The position numbers and the translations under genes are program-made. Below, one piece after another: positions 25,576 through 42,864 of a stretch of DNA of 64,000 nucleotides (positions within the stretch are counted from its first letter, which is position 1; each line of letters opens with the position of its first letter). This DNA is from Candidatus Babeliales bacterium. GTDB lineage: Bacteria; Babelota; Babeliae; Babelales; JANWKD01. Below the pieces are notes generated by a model. It saw only the letters and a program-made list of their open reading frames with translations, did not search any database and was not told the DNA's origin. The stretch spans positions 160,001-224,000 of the forward strand of contig CAVRJO010000001.1 in the NCBI GenBank assembly GCA_963722255.1, written 5' to 3'.

Positions 25576-25653
25576 TGGCGGAGGCTGATGGGACTCGAAC
25601 CCACGACCTTCCGCGTGACAGGCGGACGCTCTAACCAACTGAGCTACAGCTCC
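25576..25653 (-). tRNA. tRNA-Asp(GTC)
   Basis: Cloverleaf GGAGCTGTAGCTCAGTTGGTTAGAGC...CTGTCAC...TTCGAGT...GCCA; one extra C in the 3' acceptor strand. Confidence 0.9.
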
Positions 25654-25773
25654 AACTAAGATTATTCCACTATGGCGTCAGTTCTACTACGCTCTATGAG
25701 CTACGAAGAACAAGCAGAAAACTGGCCTGCCATTCGAAGTTTGCCAAGCCGGAAGGCCTGGATAAACGTAGAA

Positions 25774-25849
25774 TGGCTCCTCGGGCTGGACTCGAACCAG
25801 CGACCTAACGATTAACAGTCGTTTGCTCTACCAACTGAGCTACCGAGGA
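25774..25849 (-). tRNA. tRNA-Asn(GTT)
   Basis: TCCTCGGTAGCTCAG...CTGTTAA...TTCGAGT...CCGAGGAGCCA. Confidence 0.95.
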
Positions 25850-25934
25850 ACAAATTTCAACTATTTCAAAAACTGGCCTACTTTATTATTGATATCGAAG
25901 AATGGCCTGCCAGTCATTTCTGAGGGAAATGTAC

Positions 25935-26010
25935 TGGTGGGCGGTACTGGACTCGAACCAGTGACCCCCAGTTTGTAAGACTGATGCTCTACCAACTGAG
26001 CTAACCGCCC
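25935..26010 (-). tRNA. tRNA-Val(TAC)
   Basis: GGGCGGTTAGCTCAG...CTTACAA...TTCGAGT...ACCGCCCACCA. Confidence 0.95.
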
Positions 26011-29372: not shown

Positions 29373-31260
29373 ATCGGGTAGGAGCGAGTGATTAACTCGC
29401 GTCCTCCCACACCACCGTACGTACCGTTCGGTATACGGCGGTTCATGTCGATACTTTCGCGAGCATCTCATAATATCTTTCAACAAGACTTACAAGCCCT
29501 TGCTCTCGCCAATAAGCGAGGCCGAGGGCTTTGTTTATTTGTGGAGTATTTGCCAGCCGCCAGTATTTCTTGTCTGAGAATGCTATGCGTCCTGCCCATT
29601 TTCCTTCGATTCCTAGGTCTTTTAACTTTGCAAGCTTGGTTTTCCCTAACTTCCATTGTTTCAATAAACACATTCTCAATCTTCTGCGTATCCATTCGTC
29701 AAGTTCCTGGAGCACACTCTTTGTTTCGATAATACCGAAATATCCAATCCATCCAATGAGATACTCATTGAGCTTCTTCAGTCGTTCTTTCATAGATATA
29801 CCCCAATTGCGCTTCGTTAACTCGCGAATCTTCTCCTTAAACTTTATTCTGGTTTTGGGAGCGATTCGCAGCTTTACTTGCCAGCCAAAGGTGAATGAGA
29901 ATCCTAGGAACTTTCTTCTCGATGGATAGTCTATTGCACTCTTTTGTACATTTATATTGAGCTTCAATCGTTCTTGTAGAAACTTCATTATACTTGCATA
30001 CACTCTTTGTCCCGCTCGCTTGCTTGCTACGTAGATGTTGCAGTCATCGGCGTATCGAACAAAAGAGTGTCCTCTTTGTGTAAGTTCTTTATCAAGATCA
30101 TTCAGTATGATATTTGATAGCAGGGGACTTATTGGGCCACCTTGCGGTGTCCCGTCCTCTGATCTCACATGACATCCATTGAGCATTACTCCCGATTGCA
30201 AGTATTTGCGGATAATTGCGTGTATGCGTTTATCTTCGACATGTTGTGCTATTTTCGACATCAGTATGTCGTGATTTACACGGTCAAAGAATTTCTCGAG
30301 ATCGATATCCACCACAATTTTCTTTCCGTGTTGGATATAGGTTTGGGCTTTATGCACAGCTTGCCGTGCACTTTTGCCTGGTCTAAATCCATAACTGAAT
30401 TCTGAAAATGTAGCTTCAAATATTGGTGTCAAGACTTGTTGGATTGCCTGTTGGATAAAGCGATCAAGTACCGTTGGAATTCCTAATTCACGCACTCCAC
30501 CGTCTTGTTTCGGAATTTCGACTCGACGTACGGGAGCTGGTTTATAGGTTCCGTCAAGAAGCTCTTGTTTGATGCGATTCCAATGCTCATTCAGATATGG
30601 AAGCAGTTCATTGACCTGCATATTATCCACACCCGCCGAGCCTTTGTTTCTTTCCACTCGTTTGAGTGCCTTCTTGAGATTATCGTACTCTACCACTTTC
30701 TCCATCAGTTGATTATTATGATTTGCCAAGATATGTTTGTTGATTTGTGTCATAAGTTTGCTCAGTACCTCATCAGGACCTGGTAGAATTCACTACCGCC
30801 TCTCAGTGATGGTTCGATTTTTTTTTTCGATTTTCTACTTTCATTGCATTCTCGATGTACGTATCAATCATATCTTTATCGCTCATGTTCAGGCCTTCCC
30901 GATTTTTTTTTCGGTACTATGCCATCTGCTGACTTCTGTCCCTCAACCTCTATTTTCACAGAGGGTTGCCAACTTAGTCGGCGTGGAAACAGATCTCCCC
31001 GGGTAATTGCGCGCCCTTTCACCTCATCTACCTGCTCTATTTACTCTCGATAGTTTTGGCAACCATGGCTTTTGTCTTACTTGGCAGACTCATCCGCTAT
31101 CGCTAGCCTCGCATAGAGTTCGTATACCTCAGGCCAAGGTTTTGCTGCCGGCTTCCTTCAGATTTCACCTCGCGATGAACACCCTTGCCTTAGGCTAATG
31201 ACTTCGTTGCCTTCGTCATTCCGGACTTTCACCGGTAGGTCGCGCCCATGCCGGGCGCAC
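29373..31260 (-). mobile_element. group II intron, class IIC
   Basis: 5' GTGCGCCCGGCATGG; domain V GAACCGCCGTATACCGAACGGTACGTACGGTGG; 3' CCTACCCGAT; inserted directly after a terminator hairpin. Confidence 0.95.
29443..30753 (-). CDS. ltrA: group II intron reverse transcriptase/maturase, no endonuclease domain
   Basis: RELGIPTVLDR, GTPQGGPISPLL, RYADD, FLGF; domain X only at the C-terminus. Confidence 0.95.
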   Translation of the reverse strand: MTQINKHILANHNNQLMEKVVEYDNLKKALKRVERNKGSAGVDNMQVNELLPYLNEHWNRIKQELLDGTYKPAPVRRVEIPKQDGGVRELGIPTVLDRFIQQAIQQVLTPIFEATFSEFSYGFRPGKSARQAVHKAQTYIQHGKKIVVDIDLEKFFDRVNHDILMSKIAQHVEDKRIHAIIRKYLQSGVMLNGCHVRSEDGTPQGGPISPLLSNIILNDLDKELTQRGHSFVRYADDCNIYVASKRAGQRVYASIMKFLQERLKLNINVQKSAIDYPSRRKFLGFSFTFGWQVKLRIAPKTRIKFKEKIRELTKRNWGISMKERLKKLNEYLIGWIGYFGIIETKSVLQELDEWIRRRLRMCLLKQWKLGKTKLAKLKDLGIEGKWAGRIAFSDKKYWRLANTPQINKALGLAYWREQGLVSLVERYYEMLAKVST

Positions 31261-33922: not shown

Positions 33923-34336
33923 ATGATAATAAAAAAAAATTGTTTAAGAGCCTTATTATGCTTCATGCACGTAATTCACACTCATGACAATTCTCAGAAT
34001 TTAAGTTCATTTATTGAAACCACAACATTAGAAAATTTAAACTATCATGAATGCAAACAGGCCCGTAAAACTCAGTTAAAGAGTTGCTATAAAACACTTA
34101 CACATAAAGAACGAATACGCCTCTTTATAGAACTATCATTTGAACAAAAAGAAGAATTTTTAAAAGGAATAACTTTAGAAGAATATGAAGAGTTCCTCGA
34201 TGATTTTAATGAGTATGATTGGCACAAAGTTATTAAACAAATACCTGAAAAAGCACGACAAATTTGGCCTAAAACAGTTTATGAACAGCGTATGGCGCTT
34301 TTTGCACTTCTTAATCAAGATAAAAAAAATAAGTAA
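33923..34336 (+). CDS. hypothetical protein, paralog of 34342-34965
   Basis: Shared YE.FL....EYDW...........WPKTV.EQ block. Confidence 0.6.
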   Translation: MIIKKNCLRALLCFMHVIHTHDNSQNLSSFIETTTLENLNYHECKQARKTQLKSCYKTLTHKERIRLFIELSFEQKEEFLKGITLEEYEEFLDDFNEYDWHKVIKQIPEKARQIWPKTVYEQRMALFALLNQDKKNK

Positions 34337-34341
34337 GGGCA

Positions 34342-34965
34342 TTGCTCATGAACATATATAGTTATCTGCTATTTCTCTCTTTCCTTGCTAGCATGATCTG
34401 CTCCTTCAACGGTTCTTTAACTAAAGAGCAAGATCAAGGAAATATTTACTATAAAATAATAAATGATAATTCACAAAAAATTTATGTACAAAAACAAGAA
34501 TCAGAGTGTTGTGAAGATAGAAACAACTCTGAGTTTGTCGAGTGCATCTTTTCATTACCTGTTGAAGATCAAAAGGAAGTTTTCGGACAATTAACACCTT
34601 CAAGAAAACGAGAATATCTACGTAATTTAACGCCTGCACAGTATGAAAAATTTCTTAATGCATATAGTGAATACGATTGGAAAGTTCTGTATAATTCGCT
34701 CACTAAAGATGAACAAGCTTATTGGCCAAAAACAGTCAAAGAGCAGTTAATTGCAGTGCAATCAATAAAATTCAGAGCCGAAAAAGACAATGATCATATG
34801 AATCTGGCAATGATTGGAGTTGGCCTTTTTGTTAACCCATATCTCTATATAACATACTATGGATATGCTGCCTACATGTCATTTGTCAAAAATGAACGCA
34901 TTATTGTAGATAGAAATATAATGTGCTATTTTCAACACTATATGAAATCAACCTTTGAAATTTGA
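34342..34965 (+). CDS. hypothetical exported protein
   Basis: Signal peptide; shared block with the upstream ORF. Confidence 0.6.
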   Translation: MLMNIYSYLLFLSFLASMICSFNGSLTKEQDQGNIYYKIINDNSQKIYVQKQESECCEDRNNSEFVECIFSLPVEDQKEVFGQLTPSRKREYLRNLTPAQYEKFLNAYSEYDWKVLYNSLTKDEQAYWPKTVKEQLIAVQSIKFRAEKDNDHMNLAMIGVGLFVNPYLYITYYGYAAYMSFVKNERIIVDRNIMCYFQHYMKSTFEI

Positions 34966-35003: not shown

Positions 35004-35948
35004 ATGAAAAAAATAGTAATGTTAACTGCGCTCGCTGCAACAACAATTCTTATTCAATGCGAAAATGACAAGAATCCAAAAAAAAAGAAAGAGTACCAAC
35101 CAGTTCCACAAGGTGCTTACTTTTCAATAACGAATAATAATTCTCAGAGCTTTAATCTTGAGGAAAAAAGAAGAGAAGTGAGCGTGAGTGTACAACAGCC
35201 TCCTGTTGTCATTTCTACACAGCCGCCTCAACAACCGACTCAACAGCAGTACCACCAGCAATCAAATCCTACACACAAAGGCGCTCCCATCAATCAGCCA
35301 CCGCATACTATACAGCATGAGTATTCATACTCTCATCAGGAAACACGTGATTATTTTGTGCCATTTTATGATAAAATAAAAAAGATCCCAACACTTTTTA
35401 CTGCAAAAAACTGCCTTATTGCATTAGGTGCTGTTGCATGCAGCTATGCAGTTATCTATTTCACCTTACAGTATCATGTAAAAAATGTTAAAAAAAATAC
35501 CGGATGGGGATCTTTCCAAGAACATATACCGCCGGCTGATCTTAAAAGCATCGATCCTTTAGCATTGGCCGATGGCATTATTGAAGAAATTAAAGCTCGA
35601 TATCCATTGATAAACCCTGCAAATCTTATGCCTTCCATACTTCTTTTTAATAAAGATGTAGAACAAGAACTGGATGAACTGAACAATTTTATCGATTTTT
35701 ATACCGGAATTATCACCTATAAAGCTGCACCTCTATTTCCTAATTACGAAAAACTTTTGGTTAAGGCACAAACAAAAATTCAAAGACTTAACATAGTGCG
35801 TGATACTATAACAGAATGGATCAACATACATGTTACCCGCCTCATGCGGAATCAACCTATTCCACGACACAATGCTCATGAGGCCAATGGTGATGAAACA
35901 GGAACAATGAATGAAAAAAAATGCATTGCTTTTTTAGTACATGAATAA
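35004..35948 (+). CDS. hypothetical exported or membrane protein with a Q/P-rich linker
   Basis: GAGGAG SD, signal peptide, one internal TM helix. Confidence 0.65.
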   Translation: MKKIVMLTALAATTILIQCENDKNPKKKKEYQPVPQGAYFSITNNNSQSFNLEEKRREVSVSVQQPPVVISTQPPQQPTQQQYHQQSNPTHKGAPINQPPHTIQHEYSYSHQETRDYFVPFYDKIKKIPTLFTAKNCLIALGAVACSYAVIYFTLQYHVKNVKKNTGWGSFQEHIPPADLKSIDPLALADGIIEEIKARYPLINPANLMPSILLFNKDVEQELDELNNFIDFYTGIITYKAAPLFPNYEKLLVKAQTKIQRLNIVRDTITEWINIHVTRLMRNQPIPRHNAHEANGDETGTMNEKKCIAFLVHE

Positions 35949-36417
35949 CAAAAGCTTATGGATATTTTTGATAACTATTCAAGTATGCCCCATATCTCAT
36001 AGTGTGGGGCAACGGTCTTTTGATTTAAAACTAAAACGTAAAAAAATATCTAACTTCCAACAAGCACTTGCACATCTTTACGCACAAAAACCTCATCTTC
36101 TACAACCTCAACAACCTATCGAAACGGTAATAACCAATAGCCCCCCCTATTCCTGGAAAAAAATCTTAGCCCATTCAGTTGATCTAGTTCCTCTACTCTA
36201 TTTTTGTTATGGAACCTATGGAAATTACACAAACCATACTGAAGCACATCAACATTTTCAAGAAAGTTATTTGCATCAAACTATACTTTCTAACTTTCCT
36301 AGTTTATTTGTAAATACCCCACGACATGTCGGTTTCTTTTTGCAAGAAACCGAACTTTTGTTGCAGGCCTATTTGCTAAAGTTACTTTTAAAAATGATTG
36401 TTTTTTGTTTTGGATAA
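35941..36417 (+). CDS. hypothetical membrane protein
   Basis: Overlaps the upstream stop codon; hydrophobic segments. Confidence 0.5.
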   Translation: MNNKSLWIFLITIQVCPISHSVGQRSFDLKLKRKKISNFQQALAHLYAQKPHLLQPQQPIETVITNSPPYSWKKILAHSVDLVPLLYFCYGTYGNYTNHTEAHQHFQESYLHQTILSNFPSLFVNTPRHVGFFLQETELLLQAYLLKLLLKMIVFCFG

Positions 36418-36506
36418 TACAGATTCAATGAATTAGTATATATAAATGTTAACTCAAACAAATCCAATCTTGCTATTTGTATTATTTAATGTTATAAGTA
36501 AAAGAT

Positions 36507-36653
36507 ATGAAGATTACTATACCTACCATCAATAACTTATTCTTAGATGTTAAAGCTTATGGCCTTATCAATGCCAAAAGCCAGGATTGCGCCCTTTCTT
36601 ATAGCTATTCTTATTATTTTTATTTTATATACGAGGGGTCGCATTATGCCTAA
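36507..36653 (+). CDS. Tyr-rich attenuator leader peptide (48 aa)
   Basis: MKITIPTINNLFLDVKAYGLINAKSQDCALSYSYSYYFYFIYEGSHYA*: 6 Tyr + 2 Phe within 11 codons. Confidence 0.75.
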   Translation: MKITIPTINNLFLDVKAYGLINAKSQDCALSYSYSYYFYFIYEGSHYA

Positions 36654-36686
36654 ATTATAAGTTTTAAAAATTATAAGGCAAAGTGT

Positions 36687-36718
36687 AAAAACCCCGGAAA
36701 AAACCCCGGGGTTTTTTT
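36687..36718 (+). terminator. attenuator terminator upstream of the ABC operon
   Basis: aaaaaccccgg-aaaaaacc-ccggggttttttt located in the 5' leader. Confidence 0.85.
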
Positions 36719-36771: not shown

Positions 36772-37734
36772 ATGAAAAAGATAGTTTTGATTACATCAAT
36801 AATAGCAGCTGTTCCGGCATTTATTATCATGAAACGTATAAGAAAACCAAAACATGAAATAGCCTTTACTATCGGCATATTGCAAACAGCATCGCATCCG
36901 GCACTTGATGCTTCTCGTGACGGTTTTATTGAAGAGCTAAAAAATAAAATTGGCAACTCAGTTGAGTTTGTCATTCAAAATGCGCAAGGTTCTGTTGCTC
37001 AAGCTCATGCAATAGCACAACAATTTCATGCTAACAAACGGTTCATGGGATTTTTTGCAATTGCAACTCCTGCAGCTCAAGCTATGAGCACAGTTGAAAA
37101 AGAAAGGCCTATTATTATTGCAGCCGTAACTGACCCACATGCATTAGGATTAATCAATCCAACCACAAACGTTTGTGGTGTAAAAGATATGATCAATGTT
37201 AAAGCAGAAATTGAGATGCTTACACAATTAATACCTCATGCAAAAACAGTTGGCCTTATTTATACTTCAGGTGAAACAAATTCAATCGCTCTAATAAAAC
37301 AAATGCATGTAGAACTTGTAGCCAAAGGCTTAACCCCTGTTGATTTTGCAGTAAGCAATGAATCCGACATTCAAGCAGTCGTTGAGTTAGCCTGCAGAAA
37401 AACGGATGTAATTCTTGCTCCAACTGACAACACGGTTGCTTCAACTATTACGTTGATTGCAACAATAACACTCAAACATAAAAAGCCTTTAATCGTCAGT
37501 GATAATATGCTCGTTAAATTCGGTGCACTTGCCTCACGAGGAGTTGATTATAAAGCAAGCGGTAAAAAAGCAGCACAAATCGCCTATGAACTATTGAAAG
37601 GAGCTAAATTACCCTATGAATTACCGATTGAACAAGCACAAAGCGAACAAATATTCATTAATGAAAATAGTTTAAAAGCCCTTGGACTGAACATTCCGGA
37701 GTCATTAAAAGAACATATCACGTTAGTTTTGTAA
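36772..37734 (+). CDS. ABC substrate-binding protein (ABC_sub_bind; Trp/Tyr-type)
   Basis: IGILQ..SHPALD..RDGF, NAQG, AIATPAAQA, AVTDP, PTDNTV, GVDY. Confidence 0.9.
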   Translation: MKKIVLITSIIAAVPAFIIMKRIRKPKHEIAFTIGILQTASHPALDASRDGFIEELKNKIGNSVEFVIQNAQGSVAQAHAIAQQFHANKRFMGFFAIATPAAQAMSTVEKERPIIIAAVTDPHALGLINPTTNVCGVKDMINVKAEIEMLTQLIPHAKTVGLIYTSGETNSIALIKQMHVELVAKGLTPVDFAVSNESDIQAVVELACRKTDVILAPTDNTVASTITLIATITLKHKKPLIVSDNMLVKFGALASRGVDYKASGKKAAQIAYELLKGAKLPYELPIEQAQSEQIFINENSLKALGLNIPESLKEHITLVL

Positions 37735-37741
37735 GGAAAAT

Positions 37742-38587
37742 ATGATTGAACTACTACACATAGCACAAGGCATTGTTGAGCGAGGATTAATTTTCGGTGT
37801 TATTGTTGCAGCCGTTTATCTTGCTTCGCGTCTTATTAATTTTGATAATTTAGCAGTTGAAGGCGCATTCGGACTCGGCGGAGCCATAACCGCCCTCACT
37901 ATCAGTTACGGAATTAATCCTTGGATTGGACTTGTCGGAGCATCGATTGCGGGTGCTCTTTCTGGAATAGCAACAGGCTTGCTTACTACTAAATTACAAA
38001 TTAATGCGTTAATAAGCGGCATTGTTGTTACCACAGGACTATTCTCAATCACCTTAAAAATAGCCGGATCAAACATGGCATTACATGGTAACTCAACTAT
38101 TTTTACACTTTTGCCATCACTGTTTGCACCATATCAACCACTACTAGTTTTAACACTCCTCTGCGTCATACTATTTTCTCTTATCAACTGGTTTCTAAAA
38201 ACGGAAATTGGTTTCTTACTTCATGCTGTCGGAGATACGCCACAAATGCTTACTAATGTTGGTAAAAGCGTAGCCGGTTATACAATCTTAGGGTTAACAC
38301 TTTCAAATACATTAGCTGCAGTCAGTGGTGCATTATTTGTGCAGTATGCCGGTTATTTTTCAATTTGGACAAGTGTCGGTGTCTTAATTATAGGCTTAGC
38401 GGGCATGATATTAGCTCAAACATTCAGTGCAAATTTTGGGATAGCCATTGTAATCGGATCAATTGCCTACCAAGCAATTATTGCACTCACCTTTGAATTA
38501 CAAATGGATCAAGATTGGAACAAATTAATTACAGCATTACTTATTGTTCTCTTAATTGTAATTAAGCAGCAGCTCAATAAAAAATAA
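37742..38587 (+). CDS. ABC transporter permease
   Basis: GLIFG...F.NL.VEG.F.LGGA; multiple TM helices. Confidence 0.9.
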   Translation: MIELLHIAQGIVERGLIFGVIVAAVYLASRLINFDNLAVEGAFGLGGAITALTISYGINPWIGLVGASIAGALSGIATGLLTTKLQINALISGIVVTTGLFSITLKIAGSNMALHGNSTIFTLLPSLFAPYQPLLVLTLLCVILFSLINWFLKTEIGFLLHAVGDTPQMLTNVGKSVAGYTILGLTLSNTLAAVSGALFVQYAGYFSIWTSVGVLIIGLAGMILAQTFSANFGIAIVIGSIAYQAIIALTFELQMDQDWNKLITALLIVLLIVIKQQLNKK

Positions 38588-38597
38588 GGATACTACT

Positions 38598-39347
38598 ATG
38601 TTAAAACTTAAAAATATTAACATCTGGTACGGCAATAATCATATTTTACAAGATCTTTCTTGCGAGGTTCAACAAGGCGATTTTATCGTGATTGTAGGCG
38701 CCAATGGCGCAGGAAAAAGTAGTTTTTTTGACACAATTGCAGGGAAAATTAAACCAAAGTCCGGCACCATCATTCTTGATGGTTTAGATATTACACAACT
38801 AGATGAACAACAACGTGCTGGTATGATTACCCGTATTTTTCAGAATACACAACTCAATTCTGTTGGATCATTAACAGTAGAACAAAATCTTGCTATAGCT
38901 CTTTATAGCCGTAGAAACGCTCGCCTTGTTAACGGGATGCAAGCAATGCCGCGTGAACTCGCAAAGCAGCTTGTAACTAATCTCGGCATGGATCAATCTA
39001 TTTTAGAAAAACCAATGAATGCATTATCCGGAGGGCAGCGACAACTTATTGCATTTGTAATGGCCACACAACTTAGACCTAAAATACTTTTACTCGATGA
39101 GCCCACCGCAGCACTTGATCCACAGGCTTCTACAAAACTCTTACACCATGCTGTGAAATTTATTAAACAACATGCTATAACAACATTGCTTATAACGCAT
39201 GATCCACATATTGCACTGGCTCTTGGAAATAAAATTTGGGTTTTGGAAAATGGTACAATCTCCAGAGAATTTAATGCAGAGCAAAAGAAAAATTTAAATC
39301 CGGATCATCTGATTGGCCAAATTGATTATGCACAAATTGCACAATAA
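38598..39347 (+). CDS. ABC transporter ATPase
   Basis: GANGAGKS, LSGGQRQ, LLLDEPTAALDP, ITHD. Confidence 0.95.
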   Translation: MLKLKNINIWYGNNHILQDLSCEVQQGDFIVIVGANGAGKSSFFDTIAGKIKPKSGTIILDGLDITQLDEQQRAGMITRIFQNTQLNSVGSLTVEQNLAIALYSRRNARLVNGMQAMPRELAKQLVTNLGMDQSILEKPMNALSGGQRQLIAFVMATQLRPKILLLDEPTAALDPQASTKLLHHAVKFIKQHAITTLLITHDPHIALALGNKIWVLENGTISREFNAEQKKNLNPDHLIGQIDYAQIAQ

Positions 39348-39376: not shown

Positions 39377-41107
39377 TTATTTCTCTAGATATTTGGTGTT
39401 ATTCTTCTGTTCTATGTACCCTTTGATCGATTCTGGCAATTCATCAAATAAGATCTGGGTATCTTTTGACTCATTAATACAATTTATATTAGCAAGACCA
39501 TTGTTTTCTTTTAAATTATGCGCACAAGCATGAAGCAATGCAATATGATGTGCTGAAAAATTATGTAAATTTTTTTCTAATTCTTCATCAAATAACACAT
39601 GCTCTATTACACCCTTGTAACATTGTGCTGCCAGAGTTTTACCATCGAGAGAAAAAGCAACAGGGTAGGCATAATCTTTAAAAGTTCTTATTCTATGTCC
39701 AGATTGTGTGTCAAATAAAGTAACATGTGATTCTTCATCACATGTTAAAGCTAATAATGTTCCATCGGGGGATTGGATTAATTGATAGATATATTGAGTA
39801 TATTGGAATCGATAATCATCTAAGGGAATTACCTTAGATGGCTCATTTTTTTCTATATCCCAAAAACAAAGTTCTGCCTTATTACATGTGTCGCTATTGT
39901 TTTTTTTTGATAGTGAAAAAAGTGTTTTTTTGTCATGAGATAAGCATAAACAAGAAATAGGTTTCTTAGATCTTTTAAAGGAGGAAAAGCATGGTTGATA
40001 ATTACCATCTTCAATCCTGTATTTATAAATGCCTTGCTTCATATGAGCAATATAGAATGTGAGAGTTTCATTATCAAAGGCAAAAGCATCGATCTTGGGG
40101 CCAAAATATAATTGTTGAGATGCTTGATCTGTTAATGTGTTGATGTCAAGATAATAACTATAGATCCAATGATCTTGTATAAAATTGAGAACATTTCTTT
40201 GATGGGAATAAGTGAGTGCTCGAGTTCCTAGTTTTACGCTCCTTGTGGCTAAAAAATTACCTTGTAGATCATAAAGTTGAATGTTATTTCTAAATAAACA
40301 AAATAATTTATTAGATTTTGAACAAATGCATGCTGTATATAGATTTTCAGTGCTTGGTGTTGCAAATGTTGTTAAAGTATGATTATGCCAAAATGTTATT
40401 CTTTTGTAATTGCCTGATCGAAATATTAAAGTATCCACTGGAATAAAATTAGGATGAGAAGCATGAGTTTTTTTCTTATGAACGATATATTCCTGATTTA
40501 GTCTGATAAGTAAATGATGTATTTCTTGTGAATTTTTCAGTATATGATTTCCTAAAACTATTGAAATGGTTGCATTGTCAATATCATCAAGTAATGTAAG
40601 TGCTGCAGAAAGTTGATTGTTTTGTGTGAGTTGTAGTGTTTTAGCGCTTAAATATCTTAAGCATGCATTAAAAATTGGGGTAACATTAAGAAAGTCACTT
40701 GCTTTTAAAAGAGCTACAGCATTTTTTTGATAATGTTGTGTTTTGAATAATTTTTGCAGTGTAGCAAGTTGTCTTTCTTCTGTTTTTTGTTGAGCTAATG
40801 ATTTTACTGCTGTTTCGATTGTTTTGAAATATTTTTTAATAACAATAGGATGATTAATTTCAACAATAGTATCTTGTGTCAAATTATATTGATCATATAA
40901 ATATTTTACGTATTCGAGTTGTCTAAGACTCCATTGTGATGAATAAATAATTTCTTCTTGATTATTTTTTAGATTTACCGTAATTGATAAAGCATCATCA
41001 TTATCTGGAACCAAAGCAGGCATTTTAGGTTTTTCCAGTGTATAGGAATAGTGGACTGATGAAAATAAGAAGAGTGCAGAAAAAAGATAGATTTTTGATT
41101 TGAACAT
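39377..41107 (-). CDS. secreted Skp1/BTB-like + WD40 beta-propeller protein
   Basis: Signal peptide; LLKASDFLNVTPIFNAC; SPDGTLLA and FSLDGKTLA blades. Confidence 0.75.
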   Translation of the reverse strand: MFKSKIYLFSALFLFSSVHYSYTLEKPKMPALVPDNDDALSITVNLKNNQEEIIYSSQWSLRQLEYVKYLYDQYNLTQDTIVEINHPIVIKKYFKTIETAVKSLAQQKTEERQLATLQKLFKTQHYQKNAVALLKASDFLNVTPIFNACLRYLSAKTLQLTQNNQLSAALTLLDDIDNATISIVLGNHILKNSQEIHHLLIRLNQEYIVHKKKTHASHPNFIPVDTLIFRSGNYKRITFWHNHTLTTFATPSTENLYTACICSKSNKLFCLFRNNIQLYDLQGNFLATRSVKLGTRALTYSHQRNVLNFIQDHWIYSYYLDINTLTDQASQQLYFGPKIDAFAFDNETLTFYIAHMKQGIYKYRIEDGNYQPCFSSFKRSKKPISCLCLSHDKKTLFSLSKKNNSDTCNKAELCFWDIEKNEPSKVIPLDDYRFQYTQYIYQLIQSPDGTLLALTCDEESHVTLFDTQSGHRIRTFKDYAYPVAFSLDGKTLAAQCYKGVIEHVLFDEELEKNLHNFSAHHIALLHACAHNLKENNGLANINCINESKDTQILFDELPESIKGYIEQKNNTKYLEK

Positions 41108-41166: not shown

Positions 41167-42864
41167 TCAATTTTTGCCATTATTTTCTATGTATCTTTTG
41201 ATTTCTTCAGGTAATTCATCAAATAATTGCTGACTTTTTTCTGATAATTCAATTGGTTGATTGTTGAGTGCTTTTTGGGCGCAATAATCAAGTACGGCAA
41301 TATGTTCAGCAGTAAATCTTCGTAATTTTTTATAGAGTTTTTCGTTATAAAGATTACTTAATACAACGCCGCTGAATCCTTTTGCTGCTAATGTTTTTCC
41401 ATCTGGTGCAAAATCAATATAATGCGAGTTGTTCGAAAAAACTTTTATACAATAGCCATCCTGTGTGTCAATCAATTGTATGGGGCTAGGATTTGCAAAA
41501 GATACTGCCAACATGGTGCCATCAGGCGATAATCTTAAATGCCTTATTGGAGGTGGCATTCCATAGTATTGAATTGCCGGGTTGCATGCTATTGTTTTAA
41601 AAGTGGTTCCTTTATCGATATTCCAAAAAGATATTTGTGCTTGTTCGTTGCCGGAAAATAATGTTTTTCTGTCTTTTGAAAGGCAAAGTGCCGTAGTCGA
41701 AAAGTTACTAGTAAATGTTTTTGATATGCGAGGTTTATCAATTTCTAATATATCAATGCTTACTGCACAGCCTAAAAATAGACAATTTTTTTTTGAATCG
41801 GCCGCTACTGCTCTTATGTTTTTAATATGAGTATATTCTTCCAAGATAGCAGTTAATTCATTTCCATTTGGAAGATTCCAGATTGAAATTTTATTTTCGC
41901 CAAATATACATAAGGCTTTTTTTTCAGGTATATGCAATAAATGAGAAATTACTCTTGTTATTTTAATAGTATTAACATGACAAAGAGATTTTTCATTACA
42001 ATCAAAGGTATAAAGTAAACTATAAGGGTATGGAACATAATGTATTTTGTTTTCATCGGAGAAAATTATTGAGAATATTGATCCAATAGAGTCTTCTATT
42101 TGATATGAATCTGTATCATTAAGTAAAAGTTCTACATGTCCTCTATTTTGAATACATGCTAATGATCCTCCGTTTGGAGAATAACATAATGATATTGTTT
42201 CGCCTCCAAGTTTAATTGTTTTAAATGTATCAGAAATACAGACAAGCAATTGCTTTAAATGGCGAGAATTATCTAAAAAATGATTGCCAATGGCCACTGA
42301 AAGCTCAGAAACTTTTATCTCTTCTAATAAAGTTATCGCTCGATCACTTTTGTCTTCTAATGATAATGATTTCGCACGTTGATAAAGTTGATTTGCGCAT
42401 GCATCAAGTAATGGTTGGCAGCTAAGAAAGTTTGCGCCATTCATAAGTTCAATAAGCGTTTGCTCAGATTGTTTTGTATTGTTAAAACATTTTTTAAGCT
42501 GTTTTTTTTGTTTTTTTACTTGTTTTTTTGGATCTTCTTGTTCCAAACTTGCAAGAAGCATTGCTAATTTTTCAATGGTTTTTAATTGTTTTTTTGAAAT
42601 TTGTGATTCTTGCAGACTCAGGGGGGCATCAGATTCAAATTCATGTTGATCATGTAAAGTGCCGACATAATGCAGTTGTGTGAGATTCCATTGTGATGAA
42701 TAAATAATTTCTTCTTGGTTATTTTTTAGATTTACCGTAATTGATAAAGCATCATCATTATCTTGAATCGAAGCAGGCATTTTAGGTTTATCCATTGTAT
42801 AGGAATAGTGGACTGATGAGAATACGAAGAGCGCAAAAGAAAGATAAATTCTGGATCTGATCAT
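41167..42864 (-). CDS. secreted Skp1/BTB-like + WD40 protein, tandem paralog
   Basis: LMNGANFLSCQPLLDAC; WD-like blades; N-terminus nearly identical to 39377-41107. Confidence 0.75.
   Translation of the reverse strand: MIRSRIYLSFALFVFSSVHYSYTMDKPKMPASIQDNDDALSITVNLKNNQEEIIYSSQWNLTQLHYVGTLHDQHEFESDAPLSLQESQISKKQLKTIEKLAMLLASLEQEDPKKQVKKQKKQLKKCFNNTKQSEQTLIELMNGANFLSCQPLLDACANQLYQRAKSLSLEDKSDRAITLLEEIKVSELSVAIGNHFLDNSRHLKQLLVCISDTFKTIKLGGETISLCYSPNGGSLACIQNRGHVELLLNDTDSYQIEDSIGSIFSIIFSDENKIHYVPYPYSLLYTFDCNEKSLCHVNTIKITRVISHLLHIPEKKALCIFGENKISIWNLPNGNELTAILEEYTHIKNIRAVAADSKKNCLFLGCAVSIDILEIDKPRISKTFTSNFSTTALCLSKDRKTLFSGNEQAQISFWNIDKGTTFKTIACNPAIQYYGMPPPIRHLRLSPDGTMLAVSFANPSPIQLIDTQDGYCIKVFSNNSHYIDFAPDGKTLAAKGFSGVVLSNLYNEKLYKKLRRFTAEHIAVLDYCAQKALNNQPIELSEKSQQLFDELPEEIKRYIENNGKN

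Follow-up and report, generated by a model that had tools for sequence, protein, structure and literature searches.

An ABC importer operon in a genome of the Dependentiae (Candidatus Babeliales bacterium) is very probably controlled by a transcription attenuator of the leader-peptide type, in which a translating ribosome monitors how much charged tRNA-Tyr is available; the importer itself is predicted to be of the tyrosine type. The site lies in the window, by which we mean the whole stretch of 64,000 nucleotides that was analysed. The analysis yielded sequence features, conservation among relatives, frame-specific Tyr codons, covariation in the helix formed by RNA segments 2 and 3 (helix 2:3) and a thermodynamic logic, and from these we infer that the leader ORF is translated, where transcription starts, that the system responds to tyrosine and what the importer carries. 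Such a system would provide a concrete regulatory mechanism for the Dependentiae, a phylum whose members are known almost exclusively through metagenome bins, and would add tyrosine, uptake genes and two more phyla to the range of leader-peptide attenuation.

The upstream gene, with no assigned function and ending at 36417, is separated from the importer operon by a gap of 350 nt, and the leader sits inside this gap. The features of the region, all of them on the plus strand, are the following:

36470-36498, plus strand: predicted promoter, inferred from sequence pattern only, with -35 TTGCTA (36470-36475), a 17-nt spacer and extended -10 TGtTATAAG (36490-36498)
36507-36653, plus strand: leader ORF of 48 codons, from ATG 36507 to TAA 36651-36653
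36588-36603, plus strand: segment 1, which forms the 5' arm of the 1:2 hairpin around the Tyr codons, with core tgcgccctttc at 36588-36598 (by folding)
36600-36632, plus strand: regulatory codon cluster YSYSYYFYFIY, codons 32-42, with 6 Tyr and 2 Phe per 11 codons
36628-36643, plus strand: segment 2, with core gaggggtcgca at 36633-36643, which can form a helix with segment 1 or, by means of GGGGU 36635-36639, with the terminator left arm
36641-36686, plus strand: conserved middle hairpin, arms 36641-36651 and 36676-36686 (by folding and alignment of relatives)
36687-36718, plus strand: intrinsic terminator, arms 36687-36697 and 36706-36716 followed by a U tract (by folding, -16.9 kcal/mol)
36691-36695, plus strand: segment 3, the ACCCC in the terminator left arm, which pairs with GGGGU 36635-36639
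36772-37734, plus strand: substrate-binding protein (PF04392), N-terminus of the signal-anchor kind, ATG preceded by AAGGA
37742-38587, plus strand: ABC permease (PF02653)
38598-39347, plus strand: ABC ATPase (PF00005)

The leader ORF and its Tyr-rich cluster are present as the original prediction had described them, and so are segments 1 and 2, which pair when folded in a 14-bp interrupted stem (36588-36603 with 36628-36643, -12.9 kcal/mol). The predicted alternative pairing between GGGGT of segment 2 and ACCCC was reproduced by folding as a long antiterminator hairpin of -18.6 kcal/mol, with segment 1 masked and the right terminator arm not yet made, and the strong terminator expected ahead of the operon was confirmed, its arms being AAAAACCCCGG / loop / CCGGGGUUUUU at 36687-36716, then UU. 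The middle hairpin had escaped that prediction; the antiterminator helix closes over it, in such a way that the GGGGU-ACCCC pairing at its foot sequesters the left arm of the terminator. The stop codon UAA begins at the final base of the 5' arm of the middle hairpin, and segment 2 lies 8-23 nt 5' of the stop codon, within the footprint of a terminating ribosome.

According to the mechanism proposed here, transcription would start at the leader AUG or within about 3 nt of it, and a ribosome would translate the 48-codon leader with the RNA polymerase moving ahead. When Tyr-tRNA is plentiful, the ribosome would reach UAA 36651 and cover GGGGU of segment 2 together with the 5' arm of the middle hairpin, leaving the left arm ACCCCGG free, so that the terminator would form and transcription would stop before the binding-protein gene. 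When Tyr-tRNA is scarce, the ribosome would stall at the early Tyr codons (36600-36623) and cut segment 1 off from segment 2, which would then pair with ACCCC at the base of the middle hairpin; no terminator would form, and the binding protein, the permease and the ATPase would be transcribed.

The frequency of such Tyr-dense frames was measured in the genome, which has a size of 1.6 Mb and a G+C content of 34%. Only 3 of 14,790 ATG-initiated ORFs of 15-90 amino acids hold at least 6 Tyr per 11 residues, the genomic baseline for Tyr being 3.7% of the residues in long ORFs and 4.0% in small-ORF tails, and the other two of the three are alternative frames of long genes, in such a way that the leader alone stands outside any. 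A coarser scan of the genome for small ORFs adjoining terminators and holding at least 5 of one residue in 10 gave 19 matches, among which the leader site, with its own two overlapping frames, was the only Tyr-rich one; the remaining ORFs were rich in Leu, Lys, Ile, Ser, Gly or Ala and, judged from their listing alone, none was convincing as a leader peptide. The overlapping ORF at 36547-36660, in another frame, was also considered as the sensor and rejected, as it has no regulatory run and the Tyr codons are specific to the first frame. Further copies of the attenuator RNA were not found in this genome, where three matches at E about 0.8 were taken as noise.

Related leaders were searched upstream of orthologous operons. 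The binding protein was matched in 18 of 41 related genomes, and scanning species genomes with a pattern yielded 64 loci, of which 56 (L037-L092) belong to Dependentiae, Chlamydiae or unplaced bins and the other 8 to Firmicutes (seven) and one unplaced bin (L096); except for a few, the genomes compared are metagenome bins. Reading of the upstream regions provided 36 leaders, and a covariance model of the 13 closest ones added 11 more. Of the 47 leaders thus obtained, one is that of the window and the others belong to two related genomes and to 42 of the 56 loci; a second copy is present at three of these loci. At 10 of the 56 loci (L046, L051, L054, L055, L058, L059, L070, L071, L076 and L089) no leader was found, L054 being devoid of upstream DNA, and at four more (L042, L074, L088 and L090) the leader is uncertain. 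The L042 copy (2517-2711) has a recognisable attenuator RNA (36.7 bits) located 300 nt from the operon and an ORF with a single Tyr and no aromatic run; it may be decaying or re-purposed.

For each of the 47 leaders, the final 22 codons were then compared among the three frames. Tyr codons account for 196 of 1031 in-frame codons (19.0%) vs 1.9% and 5.8% in the other two frames, which over the same spans contain 114 and 119 stops. By contrast, Phe codons showed no frame preference, with 14.6% in frame vs 11.3% and 14.9%, so that, within the proposal of a Tyr(/Phe) leader, Tyr is the better-supported signal. The conservation of Tyr codons upstream of orthologs, which the original prediction had put forward as a check, was thus detected as in-frame Tyr runs. 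The possibility it had also raised, that the run of TAT codons merely reflects AT-richness, is opposed both by the rarity of such frames in the genome and by their in-frame enrichment across the 47 leaders.

The leader ORFs of the family span 19-58 codons, and their N-terminal halves diverge freely. They always precede the same operon on the same strand, with the next gene 22-300 nt away. In some loci the leader is placed about 1 kb upstream, and different genes are then found in between. In G004 (L031 7707-8714), L039, L040 and L062, a class IV aminotransferase (PF01063) lies between the Tyr leader with its terminator and the binding-protein gene; it is predicted to be co-regulated by the supply of tyrosine, and a host keto acid may be the substrate from which it makes Tyr or Phe. 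A second binding protein occupies this place in L047, L050, L057 and L072. An ORF of 455 amino acids does so in L084 (1604-2971), and the same layout, with an ORF of 460 amino acids, was seen in the uncertain locus L088 (1507-2889); neither of these ORFs has a Pfam match, and both stand between a Phe-rich leader and a binding protein with a His-Asn pocket. The loci L056, L077 and L081 carry tandem binding-protein genes, each able to have its own attenuator. In the amoeba-associated Chlamydiae L081, L082, L086, L087 and L091, the orthologous operons have Phe-rich leaders (FFACQFFFFF, for example) with GGGG/CCCC switches that resemble those of Dependentiae, and two tandem hairpins follow the leader ORF in L081 and L087.

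The pairing of the RNA was analysed on the 13 closest leaders with helices set by hand, RNAalifold having recovered only the terminator and a small hairpin on a first alignment. For the middle hairpin and the terminator, 82.4% of the cells pair, vs at most 60.2% when the helices were slid. Helix 2:3 pairs in 92.3% of the cells and shows compensatory changes in three of its five pairs (GAGG/CCUC in L049 and L075, AGGG/CCCU in L041, U-A to C-G in L085); its covariation score was reached by none of 500 shuffles, and none of six slid controls presented compensatory changes. A second register of this helix (GGGGU) showed no compensatory change. For the 1:2 hairpin, 68% of the cells pair among the 13 relatives, a pairing reached by 270 of 500 shuffles, and no covariation beyond that of the shuffles was detected.

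The effect of the ribosome position was calculated as the probability of the terminator left arm being paired before the right arm exists. Folding identified terminators in 34 of 36 leaders, about 28 of them clear. Six of the 36 leaders were dropped because they had no clear terminator, and three terminators were set by hand, leaving 30 leaders with the following values:

No ribosome: median 0.75, with 24 of 30 above 0.5
Ribosome at the first aromatic codon: median 0.81
Ribosome at the middle aromatic codon: median 0.78, with 25 of 30 above 0.5
Ribosome at the last aromatic codon: median 0.24
Ribosome at the stop codon: median 0.18, with 3 of 30 above 0.5

Thus, when the alternative structures were folded as the original prediction had suggested, the left arm was predicted to be sequestered with the ribosome at early Tyr codons and free with the ribosome at the stop. 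The stalled value is only moderately unusual, being reached by 199 of 1200 dinucleotide shuffles. The contrast between stalled and stop positions is clearer: its median is 0.59, the shuffles giving 0.15, and in 28 of 30 leaders it lies above the mean of the shuffles, with 157 of 1200 shuffles reaching it. The switch of the window, taken alone, was no better than chance (its antiterminator probability was reached by 14 of 40 shuffles and its contrast by 7 of 40), and the case consequently rests on the family and not on this single sequence. As the RNA free of ribosomes still sequesters the left arm at equilibrium, the classical branch in which no translation leads to termination is unsupported. 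Across leaders, segment 2 starts from -24 to +5 nt relative to the first base of the stop codon, and the duplex energies of own and swapped pairs of segment 2 and terminator arm did not differ significantly (456 of 5000 permutations). Having these data in mind, of the 1:2/2:3/3:4 logic originally put forward, helix 2:3 with its compensatory changes, the terminator and the effect of ribosome positions (25 of 30 leaders) hold, and the 1:2 hairpin, without covariation and dispensable in the equilibrium folds, is the least supported part.

Upstream of ATG 36507 no Shine-Dalgarno motif is present, and the predicted transcription start lies 0-3 nt 5' of this ATG, from which the mRNA is probably leaderless or nearly so. 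The layout TTGCTA, 17 nt, TAnnnT, 6 to 8 nt and ATG recurs in many leaders among the relatives. A strict version of this promoter pattern abutting the ATG was detected in 17 of the 47 leaders, vs 0.8% of the 12,115 ATGs from the same DNA that served as background, and a further 11 have a Shine-Dalgarno motif instead. The leader of the window fails the strict pattern, its -10 (TATAAG, with TG upstream) ending in G, so that its start site is a predicted one. A probable leaderless start would give a compact model in which transcription initiation, translation initiation and attenuation are coupled. A promoter-like site on the minus strand (36681-36654) was discarded, since its second hexamer falls in columns that are variable among relatives.

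The upstream ORF (35941-36417) contains, in its final 90 nt, a terminator-like hairpin (36329-36353, plus strand) with a T-rich stretch after it. The true end of this ORF may be earlier than its frame suggests, or the hairpin may insulate the leader promoter.

Other explanations of the same region were weighed against these data. The attenuator could work with no role of the ORF as sensor, the RNA (GGGGAUCGCAGUAUGCCUAA ... UAAGGC ... CCCCGG) binding a protein or a small ligand or being a plain pause or termination leader, with the Tyr codons arising only from a spacer rich in U and A. In the 13 closest leaders the nucleotides of the core are more conserved than pairing needs, which speaks for it, as do the lack of frame specificity of the Phe enrichment and a switch in the window that is no better than shuffles. 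We consider it improbable, given that in-frame Tyr codons are ten-fold and three-fold over the other frames, that an open ATG frame is kept where the RNA core differs (L063-L067, L053-L061, the L066/L069 type and Chlamydiae) and that no Rfam family reaches threshold. Alternatively, the nascent leader peptide could sense free tyrosine in the ribosome tunnel instead of tRNA charging, in the manner of TnaC, in which the nascent peptide arrests the ribosome with tryptophan. Most close relatives end in ...RGSQYA-stop, and this C-terminus, conserved in many of them, together with an ORF (45-52 codons) unusually long vs a classical leader, would agree with peptide sensing. In L043 and L085, however, the same conserved nucleotides are read one base out of frame, giving ...GDRSMPT/K, which argues that at the 3' end it is the RNA that is kept, and not the peptide, with the codon run kept upstream. 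The N-terminal halves are also free to diverge. Furthermore, an arrest at the stop codon covers segment 2 and favours termination, in such a way that the importer would be off with tyrosine only if the arrest is not needed, and the model then adds nothing; we regard it as very improbable.

Similarly little credence is given to the ORF encoding a small aromatic-rich protein with its own function, the hairpin being its terminator. The frame is open, has start signals and was called as an unnamed gene in one public assembly, but only the aromatic run is kept, the remaining peptide and its length (19-58 amino acids) vary and the C-terminus changes frame; moreover, the same operon is always found downstream, on the same strand and with 22-300 nt to the next gene. 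A chance origin, in which an AT-rich open frame happens to lie beside the terminator of the upstream gene, is hardly credible: TAT and TTT are common words at 34% G+C, but the rarity of the Tyr run (3 of 14,790), the frame specificity and the covariation of helix 2:3 stand against it. Between the end of the upstream gene and the terminator there are 270 nt, and that gene carries a terminator-like hairpin of its own (36329-36353). In G004 the gene upstream of the leader is on the opposite strand, which implies that the terminator does not belong to a gene preceding it. Chance is already contradicted by conservation, as the leaders of the relatives would have to be artefacts too.

The tyrosine-sensing attenuator would act on an importer for which tyrosine is the likely substrate, as judged from its sequence. 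The binding protein scored 208.9 bits with PF04392, vs a cut-off of 25.9, and 231.2 bits with NCBIfam NF041285 TrpX, the equivalog for tryptophan binding proteins, under its cut-off of 390 bits. Its best solved relatives are CD0873 of Clostridioides difficile (6HNI, E 1.4e-49), VC_1101 (3LKV) and SP1069 (3LFT), which, according to PMC6816091, bind Tyr, Phe and Trp, respectively; the hint at an aromatic substrate that had been drawn from the leader agrees with these relatives. The same paper describes that Glu263 of CD0873 contacts the tyrosine hydroxyl, with Ala in this position in VC_1101 and SP1069, and that its Tyr279 blocks tryptophan, with Gln in the Trp binder. In the protein of the window, Asp244 and Tyr260 align with these two residues, in such a way that Tyr279 of the best solved relative is kept and Glu263 is replaced by Asp in the predicted Tyr binder. 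The Gln that admits tryptophan is missing from it, unlike the seven Firmicutes loci, whose binding proteins have Val and Gln at the two positions; L096 has Asp and Tyr.

Genes for aromatic amino acid synthesis were also searched. Neither chorismate synthase nor prephenate dehydratase had a match in the genome, which is 93% complete, and the only match of prephenate dehydrogenase was below cut-off, whereas the three enzymes were matched in 14 of 14 control genomes. The absence of the first two fits the idea of a host-dependent auxotroph that accompanied the original prediction. The importer to which tyrosine is assigned as the likely substrate would be one on which an amino-acid auxotroph depends.

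Leader-peptide attenuators form one class that includes pheL-pheA, pheM-pheST, trpL and hisL of E. coli. The leader of the window shares with pheL and pheM a small reading frame in which codons for one amino acid are clustered, a terminator, an antiterminator that uses the left arm of the terminator and a decision that depends on the position of the ribosome. In contrast to these phe leaders, its predicted signal is tyrosine and its target is an importer instead of a biosynthetic or tRNA-synthetase operon; its ORF has 48 codons with the run in the loop between segments 1 and 2, its mRNA is probably leaderless and its family is found in Dependentiae and Chlamydiae. No Rfam family reached threshold for the attenuator RNA in the window and 16 related loci, and the sub-threshold matches were driven by the terminator, the best one being Phe_leader RF01859 (30.9 bits, E 0.0086, below the gathering score of 55). 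In the literature, with subscription journals outside the coverage, we found no description of a tyrosine leader peptide, and none of an element of this kind in Dependentiae or for this transporter. The mechanism is a textbook one, and the family, the tyrosine signal and the phyla were not found in the RNA libraries or literature searched.

The same transporter family is controlled in other bacteria by T-boxes. In PMC9382623, trpX of Streptococcus suis and S. pneumoniae is described under T-box control; trpXYZ belongs to the same family (PF04392 binding protein, permease and ATPase) and, as proposed here, a choice between terminator and antiterminator reports tRNA charging. The sensor described there is a 461-nt RNA that binds uncharged tRNA-Trp directly, whereas a translating ribosome and Tyr would play these roles in the window. 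Across the 1.5 kb surrounding the site, no T-box match was detected with E values as permissive as 10, nor window-wide at the gathering score. The original statement that the family is commonly under T-box control in Firmicutes is thus backed by these two streptococci; the Rfam scan gave no T-box at threshold in eight Firmicutes loci, with none in the four Streptococcus loci. Its only match there was the Rfam trpB motif RF04312, which in three Alkalibacterium loci (L093, L094 and L100) was just above threshold, about 350-480 nt upstream of a TrpX-like binding-protein gene. Regarding Chlamydiae, PMC7755916 proposes attenuation at the leader (TrpL) of trpRBA in Chlamydia trachomatis, which is likewise an attenuator of the leader-peptide type in an intracellular bacterium of this phylum. 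That leader concerns tryptophan and biosynthetic or salvage genes, unlike that of the window, which would concern tyrosine and an importer.

A wider reading, of which we are somewhat more doubtful than convinced, is that leader and operon form a cassette spanning Dependentiae and amoeba-associated Chlamydiae, in which the codons of the leader, often on a leaderless mRNA, track the binding pocket of the transporter, and that this cassette moved between phyla with its operon and recruited the class IV aminotransferase in some genomes. Among the 47 leader-protein pairs, counted raw, Tyr exceeds Phe in 25 of 31 leaders with an Asp-Asn or Asp-Asp pocket and in 3 of 16 with other pockets (His-Asn, Asp-Ile/Val, Asp-Ser, Ala-Asn and others), which are dominated by Phe. 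Only two independent contrasts between pocket and leader codons fall on supported branches, too few to take this link as a result, so it is offered as a lead. If true, the leader would be a built-in label for the substrate of uncharacterised transporters. In a midpoint-rooted tree, which gives no direction, a single clade with 100% support, placed amid the binding proteins of Dependentiae, contains six of the seven from Chlamydiae, and the seventh (L092) stands apart on a long branch.

Other features were observed elsewhere in the window. A cluster of three tRNA genes is located at 25580-26010 (minus strand), and group II intron domains were matched at 30892-31179 (minus strand; RF02001, 127 bits, and RF01998, 61 bits). 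Two tandem paralogous genes on the minus strand (39377-41107 and 41167-42864) encode proteins of 576 and 565 amino acids with nearly identical signal-like N-termini; the first of them, the sole one scanned, gave weak WD40/beta-propeller matches. Finally, the adjacent ORFs 33923-34336 and 34342-34965 (plus strand) have in common a C-terminal stretch, ...EY..FL....EYDW......WPKTV.EQ..., and apparently represent the tandem duplication of a gene without assigned function.
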